Position numbers and translations under genes: made by a program. The notes under the pieces were generated by a model, which saw only the letters and a list, made by a program, of their open reading frames with translations, was not told the DNA's origin and searched no databases. DNA of 64,000 bases from Candidatus Thorarchaeota archaeon. GTDB taxonomy: Archaea; Asgardarchaeota; Thorarchaeia; Thorarchaeales; Thorarchaeaceae. Shown here in pieces: positions 18,823 through 57,924 of the stretch; positions within the stretch are counted from its first letter, which is position 1; each line of letters starts with the position of its first letter. Where the stretch lies: the NCBI GenBank assembly GCA_048882045.1, contig JBHLRZ010000016.1:1-64000 (forward strand), given 5' to 3'.

Positions 18823-18908
18823 TTCTAGAGGGGAGGTTTCTCTGACTCAAAGGGTTGAGGAGACCAAATCCTTTTCTCATAGTTTGTGATAGATTCTCTG
18901 GGATTGCC

Positions 18909-19748
18909 ATGGTTCGAATGCCTGTACGAGCTGGAAGCTTCTATGAAGGGCAAGAAGATTTGCTACTTGAGAGAATCAGGAACTGTTTCTTGGGGCCATT
19001 AGGACCTGGAAAACTCCCTGAAGGAGAACCCGGATCGACCAGGTCTATAAAAGCAGTTGTCAGTCCACATGCTGGCTACATGTATTCAGGAATGCCTGCT
19101 GCTCATTCATATCTCAAGATTTTCGAAGACGGGATACCTGAACACATTGTAGTTTTAGGTCCAAATCATACAGGAATGGGTGCTAGACTTGCGGTTTGCA
19201 ATGAAGACTGGCAGACTCCGTTAGGAACAATTGGATTCGATGGAGTGCTAGGAGCAGCCATAGTTGAAGAAGACCAATTTGCATCGAACGACTGCATCGC
19301 TCATAGTAACGAGCATTCAATTGAAGTGCAGGTCCCCTTCATGCAATACACATTTGGACCCGGGGTGCCATTCGTACCAATTTGTGTTTCAGACCAGTCT
19401 TACGCAGTGTGTGAGTCAATTGGGATGACCTTGGCCCGACTTGCGGAAGAGATGGACATTCTAGTTATTGCAAGCTCAGACTTCACGCACTTTGAGTCAG
19501 CCGAGAGTGCAAGAAAGAAAGACAACCAGGCATTGGAGTATCTTGAGTTTCTGGATCCTGAAGGATTCTTGTCATTTGTGCAGGGGCATCGAGTTAGTAT
19601 CTGTGGTGCAGGACCAATTGCAGCAGCTATGGTCTTTGCGAAAGAGAGAGGTGCAACTCAGTTCAAGTTGTTGAAGTACACGACCTCGGGAGACATTACA
19701 GACGACAACTCAAGTGTTGTTGCGTATGTAGCTGCAACTATAGCTTAG
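18909..19748 (+). CDS. amrB: MEMO1 family protein (AmmeMemoRadiSam protein B)
   Basis: AGSFY, PHAGYMYSG, GPNH, EHSIEVQVPF, SSDFTH, SICG, VVAY. Confidence 0.93.
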   Translation: MVRMPVRAGSFYEGQEDLLLERIRNCFLGPLGPGKLPEGEPGSTRSIKAVVSPHAGYMYSGMPAAHSYLKIFEDGIPEHIVVLGPNHTGMGARLAVCNEDWQTPLGTIGFDGVLGAAIVEEDQFASNDCIAHSNEHSIEVQVPFMQYTFGPGVPFVPICVSDQSYAVCESIGMTLARLAEEMDILVIASSDFTHFESAESARKKDNQALEYLEFLDPEGFLSFVQGHRVSICGAGPIAAAMVFAKERGATQFKLLKYTTSGDITDDNSSVVAYVAATIA

Positions 19749-36074: not shown

Positions 36075-36989
36075 ATGGTTGTAGGCTACGAAGTTTTAGA
36101 AGACGGAACCCTGAATGAGGTCGAGCTCACAAAAGATGACCTTGAATCAACCAAGGTTGTCTGCGTCGTTGATGATGAAACAAAGAGCATCTATCTCTGG
36201 AAAGGAACCCAGGCAGGAGTTAGGAGAAAGTTCATTGGCGCAAGGGTTGCGACCAATCTCCGGACAGAGTATGGATTTCATTTTAAGGTCAGACCTTTAG
36301 ATGAAGGAGAAGAACCCCCAACCTTCTTTTCAGCACTTGATGGCACAACTGCAGCAGCAAGGATTCTAAAACCAGGAGAATCAGCCCCGCCCCCAAGTCC
36401 ACCCAAACCGAAGACTGAAGCTCGAGCTGAAGAAGCAGCAGCACCTCCCAAACCAAAACCAGATACATCAACTCCAAAAACAACTACAACACCTCCGCCT
36501 ACACCAAAAACAGCTGCACCTCCACCAAGACCACCGACATCAACACCTGCGTCAAAAAGCCCACCAGTTTCAGCAGAAATCCAAGCTATGATAGCAGAAC
36601 TAGAAACAGTCGATCCACCAGAGGGCTACCAGCGAGAGTTACTCATTGTTTACAACGAACTGTTTACAGTAGCGGAGCACAAGATTGCAGTCTTTGGACA
36701 GGAAAAGGTTGAACGTAAGTTCGAGAAAGTGAAAGATCCACCTGAAGGGACATTTATGGCAGAAGGTTTCATTCCACGAGTCATAGTACAGGATGGTAAG
36801 GTCTTAGGAATTGAGCTTCTCAAAGGAACTCCGGATGCAATCCTCAGTCCAATAAAGGCAGAGATGAAGGAACGCCTAGGGGATCTCATTACATTCTTCC
36901 GTTCAGAGATCGAGGAAGAAGCAATGTCCAAGGACAAGGCTGACGCAAAAGCTAAGGGTAAGAAAGGCAAGAAGCTTGTTGCCAAATAA
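36075..36989 (+). CDS. Gelsolin-domain protein with Pro-rich linker and C-terminal Asgard domain (1DGelX-like)
   Basis: DLES..VVCVVD...IYLWKG..AGVRRKFIG.R.A...DEGEEP..F gelsolin signature; long Pro/Thr linker; PPEGYQRELLIV domain. Confidence 0.85.
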   Translation: MVVGYEVLEDGTLNEVELTKDDLESTKVVCVVDDETKSIYLWKGTQAGVRRKFIGARVATNLRTEYGFHFKVRPLDEGEEPPTFFSALDGTTAAARILKPGESAPPPSPPKPKTEARAEEAAAPPKPKPDTSTPKTTTTPPPTPKTAAPPPRPPTSTPASKSPPVSAEIQAMIAELETVDPPEGYQRELLIVYNELFTVAEHKIAVFGQEKVERKFEKVKDPPEGTFMAEGFIPRVIVQDGKVLGIELLKGTPDAILSPIKAEMKERLGDLITFFRSEIEEEAMSKDKADAKAKGKKGKKLVAK

Positions 36990-37011
36990 TCATGATCCAA
37001 GAGGAATACAT

Positions 37012-37401
37012 ATGTCATCTAATCTCGACCCAGCAAAGGAAAAGGAGCTTGTCGAGCTCCTAATGGGCTTAACAAACTATGCAGATCTTGATGCCATCGC
37101 TGTCATCAGCAAACAAGGTGTCAAACTTGCGTACTTTGCAACAGAGGACTCAGATGTTGATCCAGACCTGATGGCAGCAATGAGTGCTGCACTTCTCAGT
37201 ACTGGAGAAATGGCGGCTGGAAATCTTGAGTTGAACGAGCTCTATGAAGTAATAGTTAGAGGGAAGGATGGATTTGTTGTCCTCTCTCATGCAGGAGAGT
37301 TTCTACTTATGGGATCCGCAAAGGACCTAACATCGATGGGACTCGCAGTCACTCAGATGAGAAAATACGCAAGAGAAGTCGGTGAACTTCTGGGTCAATA
37401 G
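37012..37401 (+). CDS. Roadblock/LC7 domain protein
   Basis: AVISKQG, AAMSAALL..GE, L.EVIVRGKDG.VVL, GL. Confidence 0.9.
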   Translation: MSSNLDPAKEKELVELLMGLTNYADLDAIAVISKQGVKLAYFATEDSDVDPDLMAAMSAALLSTGEMAAGNLELNELYEVIVRGKDGFVVLSHAGEFLLMGSAKDLTSMGLAVTQMRKYAREVGELLGQ

Positions 37402-37497: not shown

Positions 37498-37908
37498 GTG
37501 AAGGGAATCATTGTGTTTGATGAAGGAGGCGTAAGTCTTGCCTCAGTCGGTTTAGAGAACATCAAGCTCAATGAGGACCTTTTTGGTTCATTCATTGCTG
37601 CCATTCAGGCCTACGCCCAGAAATCAGTTGGAAGCATGATGAAGTCACTAACGTATAGCAAAATGAAACTCATGATTGATTTTGCAGCTGAGAATTTTGT
37701 AGTCACTCTACATGGAATTGATGACCCTGATGCTGACTGGAACCACAGTGCCACTGTAAGAGTGATTGAGGGAGATGGATTCGAACTCAATCAGCAATAC
37801 CTCGAAATCCTAAGGGAGCTCTTGACAGACGAAATCGTATCACCAGATGAAGTTGAGAATGGGATTGATAAGCTCAGGAAAGCGACGCGATCATTCCTAG
37901 ATAAGTAG
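37498..37908 (+). CDS. Longin-like domain protein
   Basis: IIVFDEGGVSL, DLFGSFIAAIQAYA, beta-hairpins typical of Asgard longins. Confidence 0.7.
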   Translation: MKGIIVFDEGGVSLASVGLENIKLNEDLFGSFIAAIQAYAQKSVGSMMKSLTYSKMKLMIDFAAENFVVTLHGIDDPDADWNHSATVRVIEGDGFELNQQYLEILRELLTDEIVSPDEVENGIDKLRKATRSFLDK

Positions 37909-51229: not shown

Positions 51230-51868
51230 ATGACTGATCGGGAGAAGATGCTAGAGCTACTGAATGAATTTCAAAACTCGATTGTCAAACTCATGGATGA
51301 GAGAGACAAACTGAGTTCTGAGAGTGAAGAACTGAGAGCTTCTAAACGAGAAGCTGAGGAGAAGGCTTGGGCTGCAGAAGAAAAGGTCAAGGAACTCACG
51401 GACGATTTGGCTGCAGTAAAGGATGAAGCTGAAGACCTTAAAACAAAGGCAGTCGAAGCGGAGTCATCCAAAGGAGAGGCTGTTAGTGCACTCCAAGCTG
51501 AAAGAGATGAACTCCGGAAGGAGATGGATGAGATCCAAGAACAGCTTGGTAGAGTATCAGAACTCTATAGAGAAGCGTCAGCTGAAAAAGAGGCCCTCCA
51601 AGAAAAGGTTGATGTAAGTGACCTATTGGCTATATACATCACACTCATCGAGACAGTCTTCTACGGCAAACCGCATGCACGAATACTGTACACCTTGCAT
51701 GATGTAAAGACTGCCATTACGAGAAAGAACTTGGTTTCGAGTACGGGCATTCAACCTGCTGCAGTACTCAAAGCAGTTCATGACTTGGCAAATGCAGATC
51801 TGGTATCATATAATGATGAAACTCAAGAAGTAGAACTTACCAAGGATATCCTTCGCAGATCCGGATAA
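51230..51868 (+). CDS. Coiled-coil protein with C-terminal winged helix
   Basis: About 125 aa of heptads, then RILYTL...TRKNL...GI....V.KAV.DL...LV. Confidence 0.8.
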   Translation: MTDREKMLELLNEFQNSIVKLMDERDKLSSESEELRASKREAEEKAWAAEEKVKELTDDLAAVKDEAEDLKTKAVEAESSKGEAVSALQAERDELRKEMDEIQEQLGRVSELYREASAEKEALQEKVDVSDLLAIYITLIETVFYGKPHARILYTLHDVKTAITRKNLVSSTGIQPAAVLKAVHDLANADLVSYNDETQEVELTKDILRRSG

Positions 51869-51891: not shown

Positions 51892-52896
51892 TTGGCTACA
51901 AAGACAACAATAGGACCCGCATTGCAGAAGTACATACGTAGATACACGCTTAATGACAAACTCAGCTCCATCACCTCCCTACTCGGTGACGAAACACAGA
52001 ATGTCATAGACTGGGCATATGAAGAGGCAAAGAGAAGGATTGCTGAAAATCCTGAGGAGAAGAAGAGGGATATTGGGAGAATAGTCTTTGATCTCATTGG
52101 CAATGAAGCTGCAATCGTTCTTGTGAAACAAAATCATGCAAAAGGAAGGTTGACGACTAAGAGTGAGGTCAAGTCAAAGACAGGACAAAAAGTCGAGATG
52201 CCAGTACTCTATCGTGATGCGGGATTGAGGCATCCACAAGAAGCTAGGAATCTTAGACACAATCTCTTCCACGAGGCATTTCATGCATTAATCATGCATC
52301 TATTTCCTGACGTTTCAACAAGTGTACCATCAACAGGAGAGGGGTTGACTCCAGACCTGATGATTGAACACAAAGACCCTGACTGGTTAATCTCGGTCGA
52401 ATACAAAGGTTATCGATCGATCACCCTTCTAAGCGAGTCGGAAGTTCTCAAGGGAATGAGGTATCAAGATGCATTCGGAACAGCATGGTTAGTGACTTCA
52501 TCCGCGAAGACTGTCAGGGATGTATACAAAAAAACGATTCATTCCAAAGAAATCGTAGAACGGGGAATAGAGAGATTACGAAGGATATACAAACGGCAAG
52601 CCTTCACAAGTGAGCAGAAGGAGAATAGAGGAATTGCAAGGAAAGGAATCAGTCACCTTGAGAAACACAAGGACCTAGACTTGAAATGCCGCCTCTGGAC
52701 TGCAGAAGAACTCCTTGAATCGATGAAGGACGGAAAACCTGTAAAGGGGCTAATCATCTCAAGTGGATTCGAATTCATCAAACTACTCAAGGATGCAGGA
52801 CTCGAGGAAGAAGCCGATAATGTTCTGCGCGTGATGAAACTTCCAACATCATCTTTACACAGTGACAAGGTGACTTCTGTCCGATTGATAGGATAA
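51892..52896 (+). CDS. PD-(D/E)XK nuclease-fold protein
   Basis: TPDLMIE...ISVEYKG, later AWLVTS. Confidence 0.65.
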   Translation: MATKTTIGPALQKYIRRYTLNDKLSSITSLLGDETQNVIDWAYEEAKRRIAENPEEKKRDIGRIVFDLIGNEAAIVLVKQNHAKGRLTTKSEVKSKTGQKVEMPVLYRDAGLRHPQEARNLRHNLFHEAFHALIMHLFPDVSTSVPSTGEGLTPDLMIEHKDPDWLISVEYKGYRSITLLSESEVLKGMRYQDAFGTAWLVTSSAKTVRDVYKKTIHSKEIVERGIERLRRIYKRQAFTSEQKENRGIARKGISHLEKHKDLDLKCRLWTAEELLESMKDGKPVKGLIISSGFEFIKLLKDAGLEEEADNVLRVMKLPTSSLHSDKVTSVRLIG

Positions 52897-52999: not shown

Positions 53000-53398
53000 T
53001 TGACGGACTCAAGTCAGAGTATCATGAAGCTTCAAGAGCAGCTAAGCGACCTTCTTAGAGCACTATCAAGTAGATCCCCCATTCTTGGAGCTGCTGTATT
53101 TTCAATAGAGGGACTTCCATTAGTCAGCAGGTTTCATGGTGGCACTGAGGAAGCTTCCATAGCAGCTATAGTGGCCGCAATCCATGCTGCCGGTGAGCAG
53201 ACTGTCAAAGAACTACGGCAAGGAGAACTCAAATCAATCATAATTCAGGGAGACCTAGGAACAACTCTTGTAATTTCAATATCATCAGACTATCTTCTAA
53301 CTGTTACAGCCCCGGATAATGCCAAACTCGGACTTATCTTCAGTGATGCAAAGAAAGCAGGGAGAGATGCTAGGAAGATTCTCCATCAGGCAATTTGA
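53000..53398 (+). CDS. Roadblock/LC7 domain protein
   Basis: AAVFSIEGLPLVS, IAAIVAAI...GE, ELRQGEL..IIIQG..G, AKLGLIF. Confidence 0.92.
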   Translation: MTDSSQSIMKLQEQLSDLLRALSSRSPILGAAVFSIEGLPLVSRFHGGTEEASIAAIVAAIHAAGEQTVKELRQGELKSIIIQGDLGTTLVISISSDYLLTVTAPDNAKLGLIFSDAKKAGRDARKILHQAI

Positions 53399-53404
53399 TT
53401 TACG

Positions 53405-54235
53405 ATGTCGATTCTCAATAAACTCTACATTGACAAGCATCCGTGTTTTTCCAATCGGAGAGAGACCCTCTGGCATCGAATACACCTACCTGTGGCTCCC
53501 AATTGTAATGTCAAATGTGCATTTTGCTCCCATTTAATAGGTTCCTCCTGCCACACCTCAAAGCCGGGATTTTCGAGCCAGCTCATGTCTCCAGAAGTCG
53601 CAGCTTCACGAGCTTTGTTGGAGATTAATCTCGATCCAAGAATCAGCATAGTTGCAGTGTCAGGACCCGGTGAACCTCTAGCTAATTCTGAAACATTTGA
53701 AACATTTGAACTAATTAGAGAACGAACACGTGACATCCACTTTTGCCTCAGCACTAATGGAACATTATTGTCAGAAAAAGTACAATGGCTTAGAATGATG
53801 GGGTTCAAGACATTAACCGTATCGATGAGTACAGCGAACCCATCCACAGCTTCAAGAATCTATGAATGGGCTGTTATTTCAGAGAAGAGAATGACAGGAG
53901 AAAGGATGGGTCAAATCATCGTCGATTCGCAGCTTCGAGGTATTTCTGATGCTGCTAATGCTGGACTGACTGTCAAGGTGAATACTATTCTCATTCCTGG
54001 TTTTAATCAAGAGGATATCATCGATTTAGCTGAATCTGTGTCAGATGCTGGAGCTGCAATTCAGAACATTGTACCTCTGGTACCGAATGACAGACTTTCT
54101 TCTTTATTGTCTCCAAGCAAAGAAGCAATTGAGGAAGCGAGGAAGCAAGCAGCAGAGCATATTAAGCAATTCAGACATTGCAAACAATGTAGGAGCGACG
54201 TAGTTGGTCTACCTGGTTGCGATGTCATTTTGTGA
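53405..54235 (+). CDS. NifB-like single-domain radical SAM protein
   Basis: HPCF, RIHLPVAPNCNVKCAFC, SGPGEPL, FCLSTNG, KVNT.LIPG.N, CKQCRSDVVG. Confidence 0.85.
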   Translation: MSILNKLYIDKHPCFSNRRETLWHRIHLPVAPNCNVKCAFCSHLIGSSCHTSKPGFSSQLMSPEVAASRALLEINLDPRISIVAVSGPGEPLANSETFETFELIRERTRDIHFCLSTNGTLLSEKVQWLRMMGFKTLTVSMSTANPSTASRIYEWAVISEKRMTGERMGQIIVDSQLRGISDAANAGLTVKVNTILIPGFNQEDIIDLAESVSDAGAAIQNIVPLVPNDRLSSLLSPSKEAIEEARKQAAEHIKQFRHCKQCRSDVVGLPGCDVIL

Positions 54236-54238
54236 ATA

Positions 54239-55057
54239 CTACTGAATACTGAGACACCCTTCTTCGACCAATTTGTTGATGATGAACCACATCGCTCGTG
54301 GATCATACTTGAGTGATTCAAGGACCGCTCTAACTTTCTTGGTGCCATCGAACTCTTTTAGGATATCATCCAAAGGTTTTCCATATTGAGCCCTCAATTT
54401 TTTGAGTTTCATTTCAGGACAGTCTTTCCTGACCAGAATGTTATCCTCAGTCAATCGAGCCTTGAATTCAATCCAATTGTACCGAGTAAGGATGGAGATC
54501 AGAGCTAGGACTTTTTCATCTGGAAATCCAATAAGATCCATTATCTCAGCTACGGTTCGTTTTCCATTGATGAACGATTCTACTTGCTCCAAATCGTGAT
54601 CAACAGAACCTACCCTGAAGGGGATCCGAATTCCATTCTTTGATTGGATTGGCACAAGATCAAGATCTGCTGTGGAGAATGGGAATTCTTGAACAACTGT
54701 AAGAGCAGATTCTCTGAATCTGCGAACATCTCCCTCAAAGTGTCGAAGTTTTTCCCCATGATCAACCTCAACCTGACTTAGAATTCGTTTGAGCTTTTCA
54801 CGGTACGGCGACTCGTCTGCGACTGGATCCACAACTAGCAAAACAAGTATATTCTCACCAACCTCGATTAAGATATCATATGCGGCCTTTCTGATTGTCC
54901 GTATTGGGGTCTTAGCAAAAATGATGACCGCTGTAACAAAGCCTGCAATCAGATCTGGATCGACAGTGAGCTCAGCATATGGAATGTTGAGAACAGACTC
55001 TCCTCCTTCCATTCGAATCAATGAGATGTATCGGACCTTAGAAACGTCTAGAGCCAT
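54239..55057 (-). CDS. Longin plus tandem winged-helix protein (NPRL2/3-like), paralog 2
   Basis: DPDLIAGFVTAV longin helix; FINGKRTVAEI and FDGTKKV wHTH repeats. Confidence 0.72.
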   Translation of the reverse strand: MALDVSKVRYISLIRMEGGESVLNIPYAELTVDPDLIAGFVTAVIIFAKTPIRTIRKAAYDILIEVGENILVLLVVDPVADESPYREKLKRILSQVEVDHGEKLRHFEGDVRRFRESALTVVQEFPFSTADLDLVPIQSKNGIRIPFRVGSVDHDLEQVESFINGKRTVAEIMDLIGFPDEKVLALISILTRYNWIEFKARLTEDNILVRKDCPEMKLKKLRAQYGKPLDDILKEFDGTKKVRAVLESLKYDPRAMWFIINKLVEEGCLSIQ

Positions 55058-55060
55058 CTA

Positions 55061-55957
55061 TCATCCCTCCACATCTTTGACTGAGGATACAGTCTTTGAG
55101 TCACTATATCCCAAGACTCCTGCATCAATCAGGTTGTTTGCTACGAGACGAACAGCCTCCATATTGAACGGGAGAAGTTCACATATTTCTGCGAGCGTGC
55201 GAGTTCCATTAATCTGTTCAACAAGTTTGGTAAGTTGTTCACCATACACTCCCTTTAGGAAGAGTGGAGGATCCATGATCTTGACCAATACTGAGTTATC
55301 CTCAAGTTTTCTGGTGAAGGAAATCCATTTGTATTTGTCAAGCATCGATAGAATAGCAATCACTTCATCATCTTCCAGGCTCGATTGCTTCATTATATCC
55401 TCTATTGTACGTTTCCCATTAATGAAACCCACAAGAATTTGGAGTTTTTCATCAGTTTCACCCACCGACCAGGGAATATTGGCATGAAGATCAGGCGTTG
55501 CTTCTGATTTTGCCACCATTTTAGGAATCATCTCGAGGGCGAAATTCCTGTAAGGATATGCCCGAAGTATTTCGAGAGCATATTCTCGAAATGGACGAAT
55601 ATCACCCTTCCAGGCTTCTAGGAGAGGTTGATGTGTCGATTCGAAATGTTTGACTATTTTGATCAAGTTGTTTCTGTAGGGATCGTCATCTTCCACCTTA
55701 TCTACAATGAGTAGTCCGACGACATAATCACCCTCTTCGATGACTACCGTATAGCCTTCTTTCGTGAATGTCCTCAATTGTCTGTTTTCAAAAATGATTA
55801 CTGCTAGAACGAAGCTTGCAACAAGGTCGGGGTCTACACTCATCTCTCTATAGGGGATACCTATGATTGGTTCTCCTCCTTCTTTTCGAACGAGAGAGAT
55901 ATAACGGACTTCTGCCTTCTCTATGCCAGATTCGTTCACACCATCTTTCAGAAACAA
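55061..55957 (-). CDS. Longin plus tandem winged-helix protein (NPRL2/3-like), paralog 1
   Basis: DPDLVASFVLAV; FINGKRTIEDI and INGTRTLAEI wHTH repeats. Confidence 0.72.
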   Translation of the reverse strand: MFLKDGVNESGIEKAEVRYISLVRKEGGEPIIGIPYREMSVDPDLVASFVLAVIIFENRQLRTFTKEGYTVVIEEGDYVVGLLIVDKVEDDDPYRNNLIKIVKHFESTHQPLLEAWKGDIRPFREYALEILRAYPYRNFALEMIPKMVAKSEATPDLHANIPWSVGETDEKLQILVGFINGKRTIEDIMKQSSLEDDEVIAILSMLDKYKWISFTRKLEDNSVLVKIMDPPLFLKGVYGEQLTKLVEQINGTRTLAEICELLPFNMEAVRLVANNLIDAGVLGYSDSKTVSSVKDVEG

Positions 55958-55973: not shown

Positions 55974-56867
55974 TCAGAGGAAATCCATCAAGCCAGATTG
56001 TGTTACCATGGTAATATCCTCATCATAATCCAAGCTATATCCTATCACCTGTTTCAGATCAATAACCGTATATGAGCTCCCCAGACTAGTGACTAAGAGT
56101 GACCCCTTCATTCCTACAACCTCGCCCAACAGTGGACTGTCATCAATCTTGGCTGTTCTTGATTTCCAAGGATTCGGTTGTGTATCAACACTCGAAAGAG
56201 AGTAGTATTTAGATAGATCTTCGAGTTCAACAGTATTTCCGAGCTCACCATCTTCTATCTCCAAAAGGAAATCTTCTACAATAGATTGAGCATTATCAAT
56301 CTCTATTTTGTCAAGAAGACCTCGTATCTTTCTCTCCCCTCGAACCTGCTTTGCAGCTTTTGGGTTCTTTCCAAGGCGATCTTCGATTCTTCGCGCATCT
56401 ATACCGCCTTCAACTAAACGGAGGGTTCCACCATAATCGGCCCCCTGCTCGACCCATCTTGTACGTACTCTCTTCTCTGAAGATACGCCAATCTTGAGTG
56501 TTTCATCATTGAATACGACAAGATAGATTGCATAATCTGTGCCATCACATTGAGCCCGTCTCTCAGAAGATGCCATGCAGTTTCTACCATCACATCGGAT
56601 ACATGGGTCCACAAAATCCATGGCGGAACAAGGACCACATCGTAGTGTTCCGCGTTGTAGAATAACAGAATCTTCAGGGCAACGGACTGATTGCAATGAG
56701 GAGTCAACACTTCCAATACATCGTCGAGGCCCACGGAACACCCAGCTGACTTTCTCCCCAGGGACAACAGGAATAAACTCTGGAGTATCACTATCGTTCC
56801 AGACTCGCAAGCCTGAGAGGAATGACCCATCATCTTGAGCCTTCCATGATATTCCCATAACCTGCAT
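55974..56867 (-). CDS. DUF2797 family protein
   Basis: RRCIG, CxxC pairs, YL......KIGVS...RW.EQGA, AR.IE, G.KG; start re-assigned to 56867. Confidence 0.8.
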   Translation of the reverse strand: MQVMGISWKAQDDGSFLSGLRVWNDSDTPEFIPVVPGEKVSWVFRGPRRCIGSVDSSLQSVRCPEDSVILQRGTLRCGPCSAMDFVDPCIRCDGRNCMASSERRAQCDGTDYAIYLVVFNDETLKIGVSSEKRVRTRWVEQGADYGGTLRLVEGGIDARRIEDRLGKNPKAAKQVRGERKIRGLLDKIEIDNAQSIVEDFLLEIEDGELGNTVELEDLSKYYSLSSVDTQPNPWKSRTAKIDDSPLLGEVVGMKGSLLVTSLGSSYTVIDLKQVIGYSLDYDEDITMVTQSGLMDFL

Positions 56868-56877
56868 GAGATTTGCC

Positions 56878-57924
56878 TCAGAATCGTTTGAACTGTCCTT
56901 TTCCTCGTACCATCCACTGGACACCTTTAATGTTCAAATCTTTCTTACATTTTGGACAGGTACCATCAGAGTCAAGATTGTTGCTACTGAGATATACTGA
57001 ATATCTTTCGACAGCTTTGAAACCACATTCCGGGCAGTACGTATTCTCATAGTCGTGACCTGCAACGTTTCCCGAATAGACAAAGACAAGTCCAGCGTCC
57101 TTCGCAACCTCGATATGCCTCTCCAATGTAGAAGCAGGTGTACGAGGTAAGTGCTTCATTTTGTAGGTTGGAGCGAATGCAGTAAGGTGGAAGGGGGTGA
57201 GTTCTCCTAAGTTCTGAACAACCCATTCAGCAAGATACTTGGTATCCTCCAAAGAGTCACCTACTTCTGGAATGATCAGATTCGTAATCTCGATGAAGAT
57301 GTTTCTTTCTTTCATAGCTTTCATTGAGGCATAAATAGGATCAACCTTGGGAACGGACATCAAGTCTTTGTAGAACTTTTTATTGCCACTACCCTTGAAG
57401 TTGATAGATGCCGCATCTAGATATGGTGCTATCATGTCCACAGCATCTATGGTCATGTAGCCGTTGGTTACGAATGTGTTGAACATTCCTTTCTCGTGAG
57501 CAATCTTGGCGGTGTCGTATGCCAATTCATAGAAGACAGTAGGTTCAGTGTATGTGTACGTGATTCCACTACAGTCATATTTCTCTGCGAGAATTACGAT
57601 ATCCTCGGGACTCACATATTGTCCAACTGGGATTTCTCTGTGGGCGGAATGATAGTTTAGGCAGAATTGACAACGAAAATTACAGGAAGAGGTGCTAATT
57701 GAGAAAGCCGAACTTCCAGGAGCGAAATGGAAGAGTGGTTTCTTCTCGATGGGATCAGCCGCCATTCCGTCAATCAATCCATAGACTGTTGTATAGAGAT
57801 TGTTATCCTTTGCCACTCTAACCCTACAGAATCCAGTTTCACCATCATGGATTACACATCTTCTAGCACATAGGTCACATCTGATACCCTGTTTAAGGTT
57901 GGAGTAAAGCAGCGCCTCTTTCAT
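56878..57924 (-). CDS. amrS: AmmeMemoRadiSam radical SAM enzyme
   Basis: CDLCARRC, GFCRVR, DPIEKKPLFHF, CNFRCQFC, YTYTEP, TYCPECG. Confidence 0.93.
   Translation of the reverse strand: MKEALLYSNLKQGIRCDLCARRCVIHDGETGFCRVRVAKDNNLYTTVYGLIDGMAADPIEKKPLFHFAPGSSAFSISTSSCNFRCQFCLNYHSAHREIPVGQYVSPEDIVILAEKYDCSGITYTYTEPTVFYELAYDTAKIAHEKGMFNTFVTNGYMTIDAVDMIAPYLDAASINFKGSGNKKFYKDLMSVPKVDPIYASMKAMKERNIFIEITNLIIPEVGDSLEDTKYLAEWVVQNLGELTPFHLTAFAPTYKMKHLPRTPASTLERHIEVAKDAGLVFVYSGNVAGHDYENTYCPECGFKAVERYSVYLSSNNLDSDGTCPKCKKDLNIKGVQWMVRGKGQFKRF

Follow-up and report, generated by a model that had tools for sequence, protein, structure and literature searches.

The locus considered here raises the question of whether two adjacent archaeal genes, each coding for a longin domain followed by two winged helices, are related to the NPRL2-NPRL3 pair and, if they are, whether they stand in its ancestry. 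NPRL2 and NPRL3 are the catalytic core of GATOR1, a brake on TORC1 nutrient signalling, and the origin of their fold and of their two-paralogue design bears on the rise of eukaryotic GTPase regulation. The two genes, called A and B, lie on contig JBHLRZ010000016.1 of a Candidatus Thorarchaeota archaeon (assembly GCA_048882045.1), in the stretch of 64,000 nucleotides (nt) that was analysed as a whole and is referred to as the window. With moderate confidence, A and B are interpreted as tandem duplicates, specific to one Thorarchaeal family, of an Asgard NPRL2-like gene, and their products as a regulator or scaffold of a small GTPase. The locus presents a compact archaeal version of the design, with proteins of ~270-300 amino acids (aa) that are well conserved and confidently modelled. 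The genes and their domains, including the first and second winged helices (wH1 and wH2), are the following.

55061-55957, minus strand: gene A (P0002), 298 aa, NPRL2-like longin and two winged helices, TTG start and TGA stop
55538-55957, minus strand: longin domain of gene A, approximately residues 1-140
55304-55471, minus strand: wH1 of gene A, approximately residues 163-218, holding FINGKRT
55100-55276, minus strand: wH2 of gene A, approximately residues 228-286, net charge -4
55058-55060, minus strand: spacer TAG, the three bases between the TGA of A and the ATG of B
54239-55057, minus strand: gene B (P0001), 272 aa, NPRL2-like longin and two winged helices, ATG start
54668-55057, minus strand: longin domain of gene B, approximately residues 1-130
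54452-54616, minus strand: wH1 of gene B, approximately residues 148-202, holding FINGKRT and aligning with human NPRL2
54242-54424, minus strand: wH2 of gene B, approximately residues 212-272, net charge +2

The A and B proteins are 37% identical over 276 columns (BLASTP, E 2e-67); this likeness is far beyond chance, and the two are paralogues. The motifs VRYISLxRxEGGE, VDPDLxAxFVxAVIIF and FINGKRT are found in both translations alike. Gene A has an alternative GTG start seven codons downstream of the TTG, and with the next in-frame methionine as start, the fold would be without its first two strands. The close packing of the two genes is compatible with translational coupling. Full-length proteins were modelled by AlphaFold2 from two alignments, with 27 and 24 sequences of the family, giving a mean predicted local distance difference test (pLDDT) of 89.7 and a predicted template modelling score (pTM) of 0.81 for B, and 86.9 and 0.82 for A. 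Both models begin with a beta-beta-alpha-beta-beta-beta-alpha-alpha succession, the longin topology, after which come two helix-helix-helix-strand-strand units, that is, two winged helices. In gene A, the strands (E) and helices (H) assigned to the longin domain by DSSP are E17-24, E30-35, H43-57, E63-66, E69-75, E79-86, H92-114 and H121-133. An earlier note, made from the letters of this DNA alone, had described adjacent paralogs with only a TAG between them, the three shared motifs, and a longin domain with two winged helix-turn-helix (HTH) repeats in each protein, at the end of an amrS-DUF2797 run that converges on a roadblock-NifB-like gene pair. The pairwise alignment, the translations and the models bear out this description of A and B, and family matches and coordinates, given further below, confirm that of the flanking genes.

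Likeness to NPRL2 and NPRL3

The likeness of A and B to NPRL2 and NPRL3 exceeds that of a generic longin fold and is real, as claimed in the earlier note, and it is seen along two independent lines, Foldseek and sequence profiles. When the whole model of B is used as the Foldseek query, ranks 1-13 are all chains of GATOR1/SEACIT entries (E 7.9e-8 to 9.2e-5), and with the whole model of A the same is true of ranks 1-12 (E 4.0e-8 to 3.7e-5). The alignments to these chains are near full length, at 320-370 columns. Adaptor sigma-type longins are next in the ranking, with E ~1e-4. According to profile matches to the Protein Data Bank (PDB), 8adl_S is yeast Npr2, and 6ces, 7t3a, 7t3b, 9v0j, 8fw5, 9o5a and 9o5d hold NPRL2. 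From chain lengths, we infer that matched chains of 362-370 residues are NPRL2 and those of 400-461 residues are NPRL3; on this assignment, NPRL2-type chains come first for A and B alike.

Sequence profiles point to the same proteins. A hidden Markov model built from 27 family sequences was compared with the PDB; the three distinct sequences that scored best are yeast Npr2 (E 1.5e-3) and two constructs of human NPRL2 (E 3.7e-5 and 4.1e-5). With a profile of 34 sequences, NPRL2 (E 4.4e-7, 32 bits, and E 5e-7) and Npr2 (E 3.6e-5) are the top 3 of 42, and MarR-type regulators are next, at E 8e-4. The match extends over the linker and wH1 only, from the end of the longin domain onward (NPRL2 172-264), and in it the family motif I-x-G-K-R-T-I-x-x-I aligns with YIDGFRHIQKI of NPRL2. 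At the level of sequence profiles, homology to NPRL2 was shown to be detectable in the first winged helix. The profile of an 8-sequence alignment gave no NPRL2 match in the PDB, and the signal is seen only with the more diverse alignments of 27 and 34 sequences. In Pfam, HTH_NPRL3 matches A only, at E 0.049, and the NPR2/NPR3 models had no match in the 38 proteins scanned of 150 metagenome representatives listed. A look-up in the ESM Atlas returned unnamed archaeal clusters only, some members of which carry HTH_47 or TrmB.

An arrangement in which repeated winged helices come after a longin domain is common to A/B and to NPRL2-NPRL3/Npr2-Npr3 of GATOR1/SEACIT, the GTPase-activating protein (GAP) for RagA/Gtr1. 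In the excerpted text of Levine et al. (PMC3747258), NPRL2 and NPRL3 are described as an N-terminal longin domain with two or more winged HTH repeats. Like A and B, NPRL2 and NPRL3 are two paralogues, and they supply both the best Foldseek matches and the homology in wH1. However, A and B are shorter, at ~270-300 aa, than the 380-aa NPRL2 and 615-aa Npr2 chains. According to the excerpted text of PMC12290439, the beta1-beta2 loop ends in a "GP motif" in NPRL2, FLCN, SMCR8 and C9orf72, which NPRL3 and FNIP do not have. Ahead of beta2, A has GGEP and B has GGES; compared by position in the loop, the glycine of the GAP longins appears kept, but a contiguous G-P is not present. The FLCN-FNIP and C9orf72-SMCR8 pairs, described in the same excerpt as longin dimers on Rag or Arf GTPases, have the loop-end glycine in common with A/B, whereas their DENN modules after the longin domain and their conserved arginine finger were not seen in either A or B. 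Roadblock dimers such as MglB and Ragulator differ further, as A and B have longin, not roadblock, element order, plus two winged helices.

Conservation was computed over 59 orthologue pairs, in which constraint is strongest in the longin domain and weakest in the second winged helix. The beta1-beta2 loop is GGEP in A and EGGES in B, each in at least 98% of the orthologues, and an arginine at the end of beta1 is invariant in both proteins. The second glycine of the loop (G19) is at least 90% conserved in 27 family sequences.

Conservation and duplication of the pair

The genes next to A and B, which are needed for the comparison with other genomes, are listed here.

56878-57924, minus strand: amrS, AmmeMemoRadiSam radical SAM gene (TIGR04337, E 1.2e-88, 297 bits against a cutoff of 220)
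55974-56924, minus strand: DUF2797 gene, 16 nt upstream of A (PF10977, E 1.3e-12)
53405-54235, plus strand: NifB-like radical SAM gene, 6 nt past the roadblock gene (TIGR01290, E 1.3e-65; 222 bits, under the cutoff of 344)
53000-53398, plus strand: Roadblock/LC7 gene, convergent on A/B (PF03259, E 2.3e-12)

A and B close a run on one strand in the order amrS-DUF2797-A-B, with amrS first. Close homologues number 285 at E <= 1e-3, the best 120 of which are "hypothetical proteins" of Thorarchaeota-type metagenome-assembled genomes (MAGs). Of 70 related loci from species-representative genomes, 66 have both A and B with order and orientation unchanged, and the roadblock neighbour is conserved as well. 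Among the four exceptions, L065 and L070 end at a contig edge, L069 has another paralogue, and L059 is truly without A. This last locus is also without DUF2797, and B alone directly follows amrS; in L042 and L058, DUF2797 is gone and both A and B are kept. The DUF2797 gene is found in 60/70 loci and is truly absent, with flank available, in those three. The roadblock gene is found in 56/70 loci and the NifB-like gene in 61/70, all misses being at locus ends. A and B overlap or are separated by 4 nt or less in 25/60 loci, with a median of 32 nt and a maximum of 154 nt, although some of these gaps are underestimated because the caller of open reading frames (ORFs) picks the longest ORF. A sample of 301 genomes of the phylum was searched with the profile of the pair at E <= 1e-10; a match was found in 75 of the 76 genomes of the window's family, and other families matched only weakly (39/224).

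A maximum-likelihood tree of 74 rows was computed by a quick method, with support only from the Shimodaira-Hasegawa-like approximate likelihood ratio test (SH-aLRT). Its rows are the pairs from 22 of 59 complete-pair loci, the window, L059, nine same-genome paralogues and 18 representatives. A forms one clade (23 rows, SH-aLRT 98) and B forms one clade (24 rows, SH-aLRT 99); in addition to the window, the two clades cover an identical set of 22 loci. Both copies have therefore been retained since the duplication.

The state before the duplication can be approached through a genome of the sister family, which belongs to the same order. Its syntenic locus (L089) contains cc484, amrS, DUF2797, one 275-aa family member at L089:7663-8490, a convergent roadblock gene, orf334 and cc212; a single gene is present instead of the pair, and no NifB-like gene. 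The single protein is 29% identical to A and 31% identical to B. Since the sister family has one copy, which is about equally like A and B, the duplication took place within the Thorarchaeal family. The tail-to-tail position of the roadblock gene is kept in the sister family, and because it persists at this deeper distance, the association weighs a little more than synteny among close relatives would. In three more distant genomes (L090, L091, L092), the best homologue is single and without an amrS, DUF2797 or roadblock neighbour.

Judged from these sequences, the A/B duplication is a parallel to the NPRL2/NPRL3 duplication and not its forerunner. The evolutionary claim is thus one of parallel, not of origin: the duplication is confined to one archaeal family, is independent of that of NPRL2/NPRL3, and is not ancestral to the eukaryotic one. 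The "proto-GATOR1" of the earlier note fails as a statement of ancestry on the single gene of the sister family, on A and B clades that are Thorarchaeal only, and on NPR2 and IML1 models without a match. Orthology of A with NPRL2 and of B with NPRL3 was also considered and was rejected, because both are best matched by NPRL2-type chains and the duplication is local; there is no one-to-one correspondence between the two pairs.

The family and its NPRL2 likeness have been known since 2020, and the addition made here is a modest one: a duplication specific to the lineage, the conservation of that duplication, and the fusions to GTPases described below. Liu et al. (bioRxiv 10.1101/2020.10.19.343400), in the preprint's text as excerpted, report an NPRL2-like family in most Thorarchaeal MAGs, which resembles A/B in its longin domain, its NPRL2-type C-terminal domain and its distribution, found here in 75 of the 76 genomes of the window's family and patchy elsewhere. 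An "NPRL2-like longin domain" class of asCOGs is named in an excerpt of PMC9834061. Tandem paralogues, a single-copy sister state and a roadblock neighbour are not mentioned in the excerpted text of Liu et al., of which Fig. 5c, the supplements and the Nature version may show them, and the excerpted text of PMC12290439 contains no A/B tandem pair, single-copy sister state or roadblock neighbour.

Links to GTPases and the possible role of the pair

The family to which A and B belong is much expanded in the genome, with 21 six-frame matches and 27 ORFs found by hmmsearch, and at least nine members have the full module of a longin domain and two winged helices. A paralogue of 652 aa on contig C6 carries, before this module, an Arf/Roc/Ras-type G domain that Gtr1_RagA also matches above cutoff. 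The fusion of G domain and module recurs in the sister family (L093, 644 aa) and in the metagenome representatives P0139 and P0148. In L092, from another Asgard family, the closest member comes last in a run of four overlapping genes, one of which codes for an Arf-like GTPase. Candidate clients within the genome are 10 matches to the Gtr1_RagA model, all of them short G-domain matches, and 15 matches to the roadblock model were also found. The reading of A/B as probable regulators or scaffolds of a small GTPase draws on these fusion and operon links, from the homology to NPRL2 and from the use of longin and roadblock dimers as GTPase platforms (PMC3747258).

In the mechanism proposed, A and B would be co-produced from a single amrS-DUF2797-A-B transcript, and A would pair with B via the longin domains, by analogy with what is usual for longin and roadblock proteins. 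The pair might serve as a platform or regulator, i.e. as a GAP, an exchange factor for guanine nucleotides (GEF) or a scaffold, for one of the Arf/Rag/Rab-like GTPases of the genome, and the neighbouring conserved roadblock protein may join the pair in this regulation. A and B are acidic, with isoelectric points of 5.6 and 4.8 and net charges of -4 and -14, and the net charge of wH1 is -2 in both. The acidic winged helices would be protein-protein modules, as they are in GATOR1, with no DNA binding. Any GAP chemistry would differ from that of NPRL2, since the beta4-beta5 hairpin is without arginine. A prediction of the A/B complex reached a score of 0.02 against a mark of 0.32, which is no answer, neither for nor against binding.

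A number of results count against this interpretation. Global TM-scores to NPRL2/3 are low (0.30-0.37, with a root-mean-square deviation of 10-14 Å), so the domains match but their mutual arrangement does not. When the longin domain alone is compared by rigid superposition (VIA-align), it is nearest to longins of SNARE, CPLANE, adaptor and roadblock type, and the 50 VIA-align rows shown, all filled by longin domains, include no GATOR1 chain; what is specific to NPRL2 in the signal therefore comes from the wH1 region and the overall architecture. Neither A, B nor anything else in the 93%-complete genome has a match at E <= 1 to Pfam NPR2 (PF06218), and the genome has no match at E <= 1 to IML1/DEPDC5 (PF12257). 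The winged helices also match MarR- and TrmB-type regulators weakly. The arginine finger of the GATOR1 GAP is Arg78 of NPRL2, on a loop of the longin domain (PMC8534245); the beta4-beta5 hairpin of A and B, a putative counterpart of that loop delimited by the strands of the models, has no arginine and reads EVGENI in B and EEGDYV in A. The alignment of 27 sequences has no arginine conserved family-wide either, and canonical NPRL2-type GAP chemistry is therefore unsupported, as the earlier note had said of the hairpin. None of the 10 Gtr1_RagA matches is on the window's contig, and a Pfam scan of 48 further ORFs of the 64-kb window found no GTPase family. In the close relatives, a block of ~10 genes including topoisomerase VI is syntenic, so that the adjacency of the roadblock gene may be passive; this adjacency was for that reason rejected as strong functional evidence by itself. 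From the earlier interpretation of a proto-GATOR1-like, heterodimeric regulator of a small GTPase, the NPRL2-like character and a plausible link to GTPases are retained, and the proto-GATOR1 part is given up; the absence of a small-GTPase gene from the window and the generic look of the longin domain on rigid superposition also count on the negative side.

It is less likely, but plausible, that A and B have become independent homodimers by subfunctionalisation after the duplication, their tandem linkage being a historical leftover. A single gene suffices in the sister family, one genome (L059) has B without A, and solved Asgard roadblock and longin proteins are homodimeric, according to excerpts of PMC10933270 and the titles of PDB entries 8yqg and 9jue. 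Against this, the copies stand side by side in 66/70 loci, often with a minimal spacer or an overlap, and A falls in one clade and B in another, both covering the same 22 loci and the window. The genomic pattern thus favours a functional A/B pair; that a homodimer is viable is seen from the single-copy sister family, from the genome with B only and from the Asgard roadblock and longin structures, which are homodimeric.

A more ambitious version of the GTPase-regulator interpretation, which we regard as unlikely, is that Thorarchaea re-invented the NPRL2/NPRL3 design. A gene for a homodimer would have given rise to an obligate A:B heterodimer whose active-site loops would be asymmetric, with the invariant GGEP in A and GGES in B, each after the invariant arginine that ends beta1. 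Together with the conserved roadblock neighbour, the heterodimer would act as a GAP or GEF for an Arf/Rag-like GTPase, without the canonical arginine finger of NPRL2.

It appears improbable that the pair is an adaptor or chaperone for the AmmeMemoRadiSam system or its substrate, or a platform for an NTPase that is not a GTPase. The four genes amrS-DUF2797-A-B are packed tightly on one strand, the order amrS-DUF2797-homologue is found in the sister family too, and on contig C37 a ParA/MinD-type ATPase gene comes directly after a pair of paralogues of 348 and 425 aa. However, L042, L058 and L059 are without DUF2797 and yet keep the pair or B, the distant members in L090, L091 and L092 have no amrS, DUF2797 or roadblock neighbours, the Memo gene is ~35-37 kb off in the window, and synteny among close relatives takes in unrelated genes.

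MarR- and HTH-type profile matches fall on both winged-helix units, and the MarR/TrmB-type family profiles give only sub-threshold matches to A/B. The least likely of the alternatives is that A and B are transcription regulators, with the longin domain as sensor of a ligand or protein and the winged helices as the DNA-binding part, perhaps to control the flanking radical-SAM genes: it can draw on second-tier PDB matches to MarR-family and archaeal HTH proteins (E 8e-4 to 0.03 with 34 sequences, 0.026-0.065 with 27) and on TrmB, HTH_47 and HTH_24 Pfam matches in relatives, but both proteins are acidic, with wH1 at -2 in each and wH2 at -4 in A, NPRL2 ranks above all DNA binders in the 27- and 34-sequence profile searches, conservation sits in the longin domain and is lowest in wH2, and family members are fused to G domains.

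For the preferred reading of A/B as an NPRL2-like pair that would regulate or scaffold a small GTPase, the comparison of one-gene and two-gene sister lineages, together with the GTPase-fused paralogues, offers a convenient system in which an NPRL2-like longin protein can be studied without DEPDC5.

Other paralogues and other genes of the window

Two further tandem pairs of family members are found in the genome. The pair on contig C6 comprises the 652-aa protein mentioned above (L081:5709-7667, minus strand), with its G domain at residues ~122-253, and a 564-aa protein directly upstream (L081:7760-9454, minus strand), in which the module occupies residues 303-562 and the N-terminal half is without a Pfam family match. 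Over the module, the two are ~21% identical (pairwise E 0.011). The pair on contig C37 comprises a 348-aa protein (L082:6176-7222, minus strand), which also matches Fuz_longin_1, and a 425-aa protein (L082:4819-6096, minus strand); the ATPase gene that follows, overlapping with the pair, is at L082:4077-4829 (minus strand) and is of the AAA_31/ParA/CbiA type. The four-gene run with the Arf-like GTPase (L092:7042-10358, minus strand) codes for an unknown protein of 351 aa, the Arf-like GTPase, which has 276 aa and is extended at its N terminus, an unknown protein of 180 aa and the 303-aa family member, whose second winged helix is weakly like DUF742 (conservon CvnC family).

Among other genes of the window, a Memo-like gene is located at 18855-19748 (plus strand; PF01875, E 6e-70), ~35-37 kb from amrS and belonging to the same AmmeMemoRadiSam system; the scanned ORFs of the window include no AMMECR1 gene. 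Two conserved genes are found in the interval between topoisomerase VI and the roadblock gene. The one at 51892-52896 (plus strand) codes for a 334-aa protein without a family match; the product of the other, at 51230-51868 (plus strand), is a coiled-coil protein of 212 aa whose C-terminal part gives a weak winged-helix signal (MarR/Fe_dep_repress-like). These two genes accompany the roadblock gene in 54/70 related loci each, and in the sister family. The window also contains a second Roadblock/LC7 gene at 36976-37401 (plus strand; PF03259, E 8e-12), which is followed at 37498-37908 (plus strand) by a 136-aa ORF, weakly matched (E 6e-4) by the longin portion of the family profile. This second roadblock gene and the longin-like ORF make up another small cluster, 16 kb from A/B.

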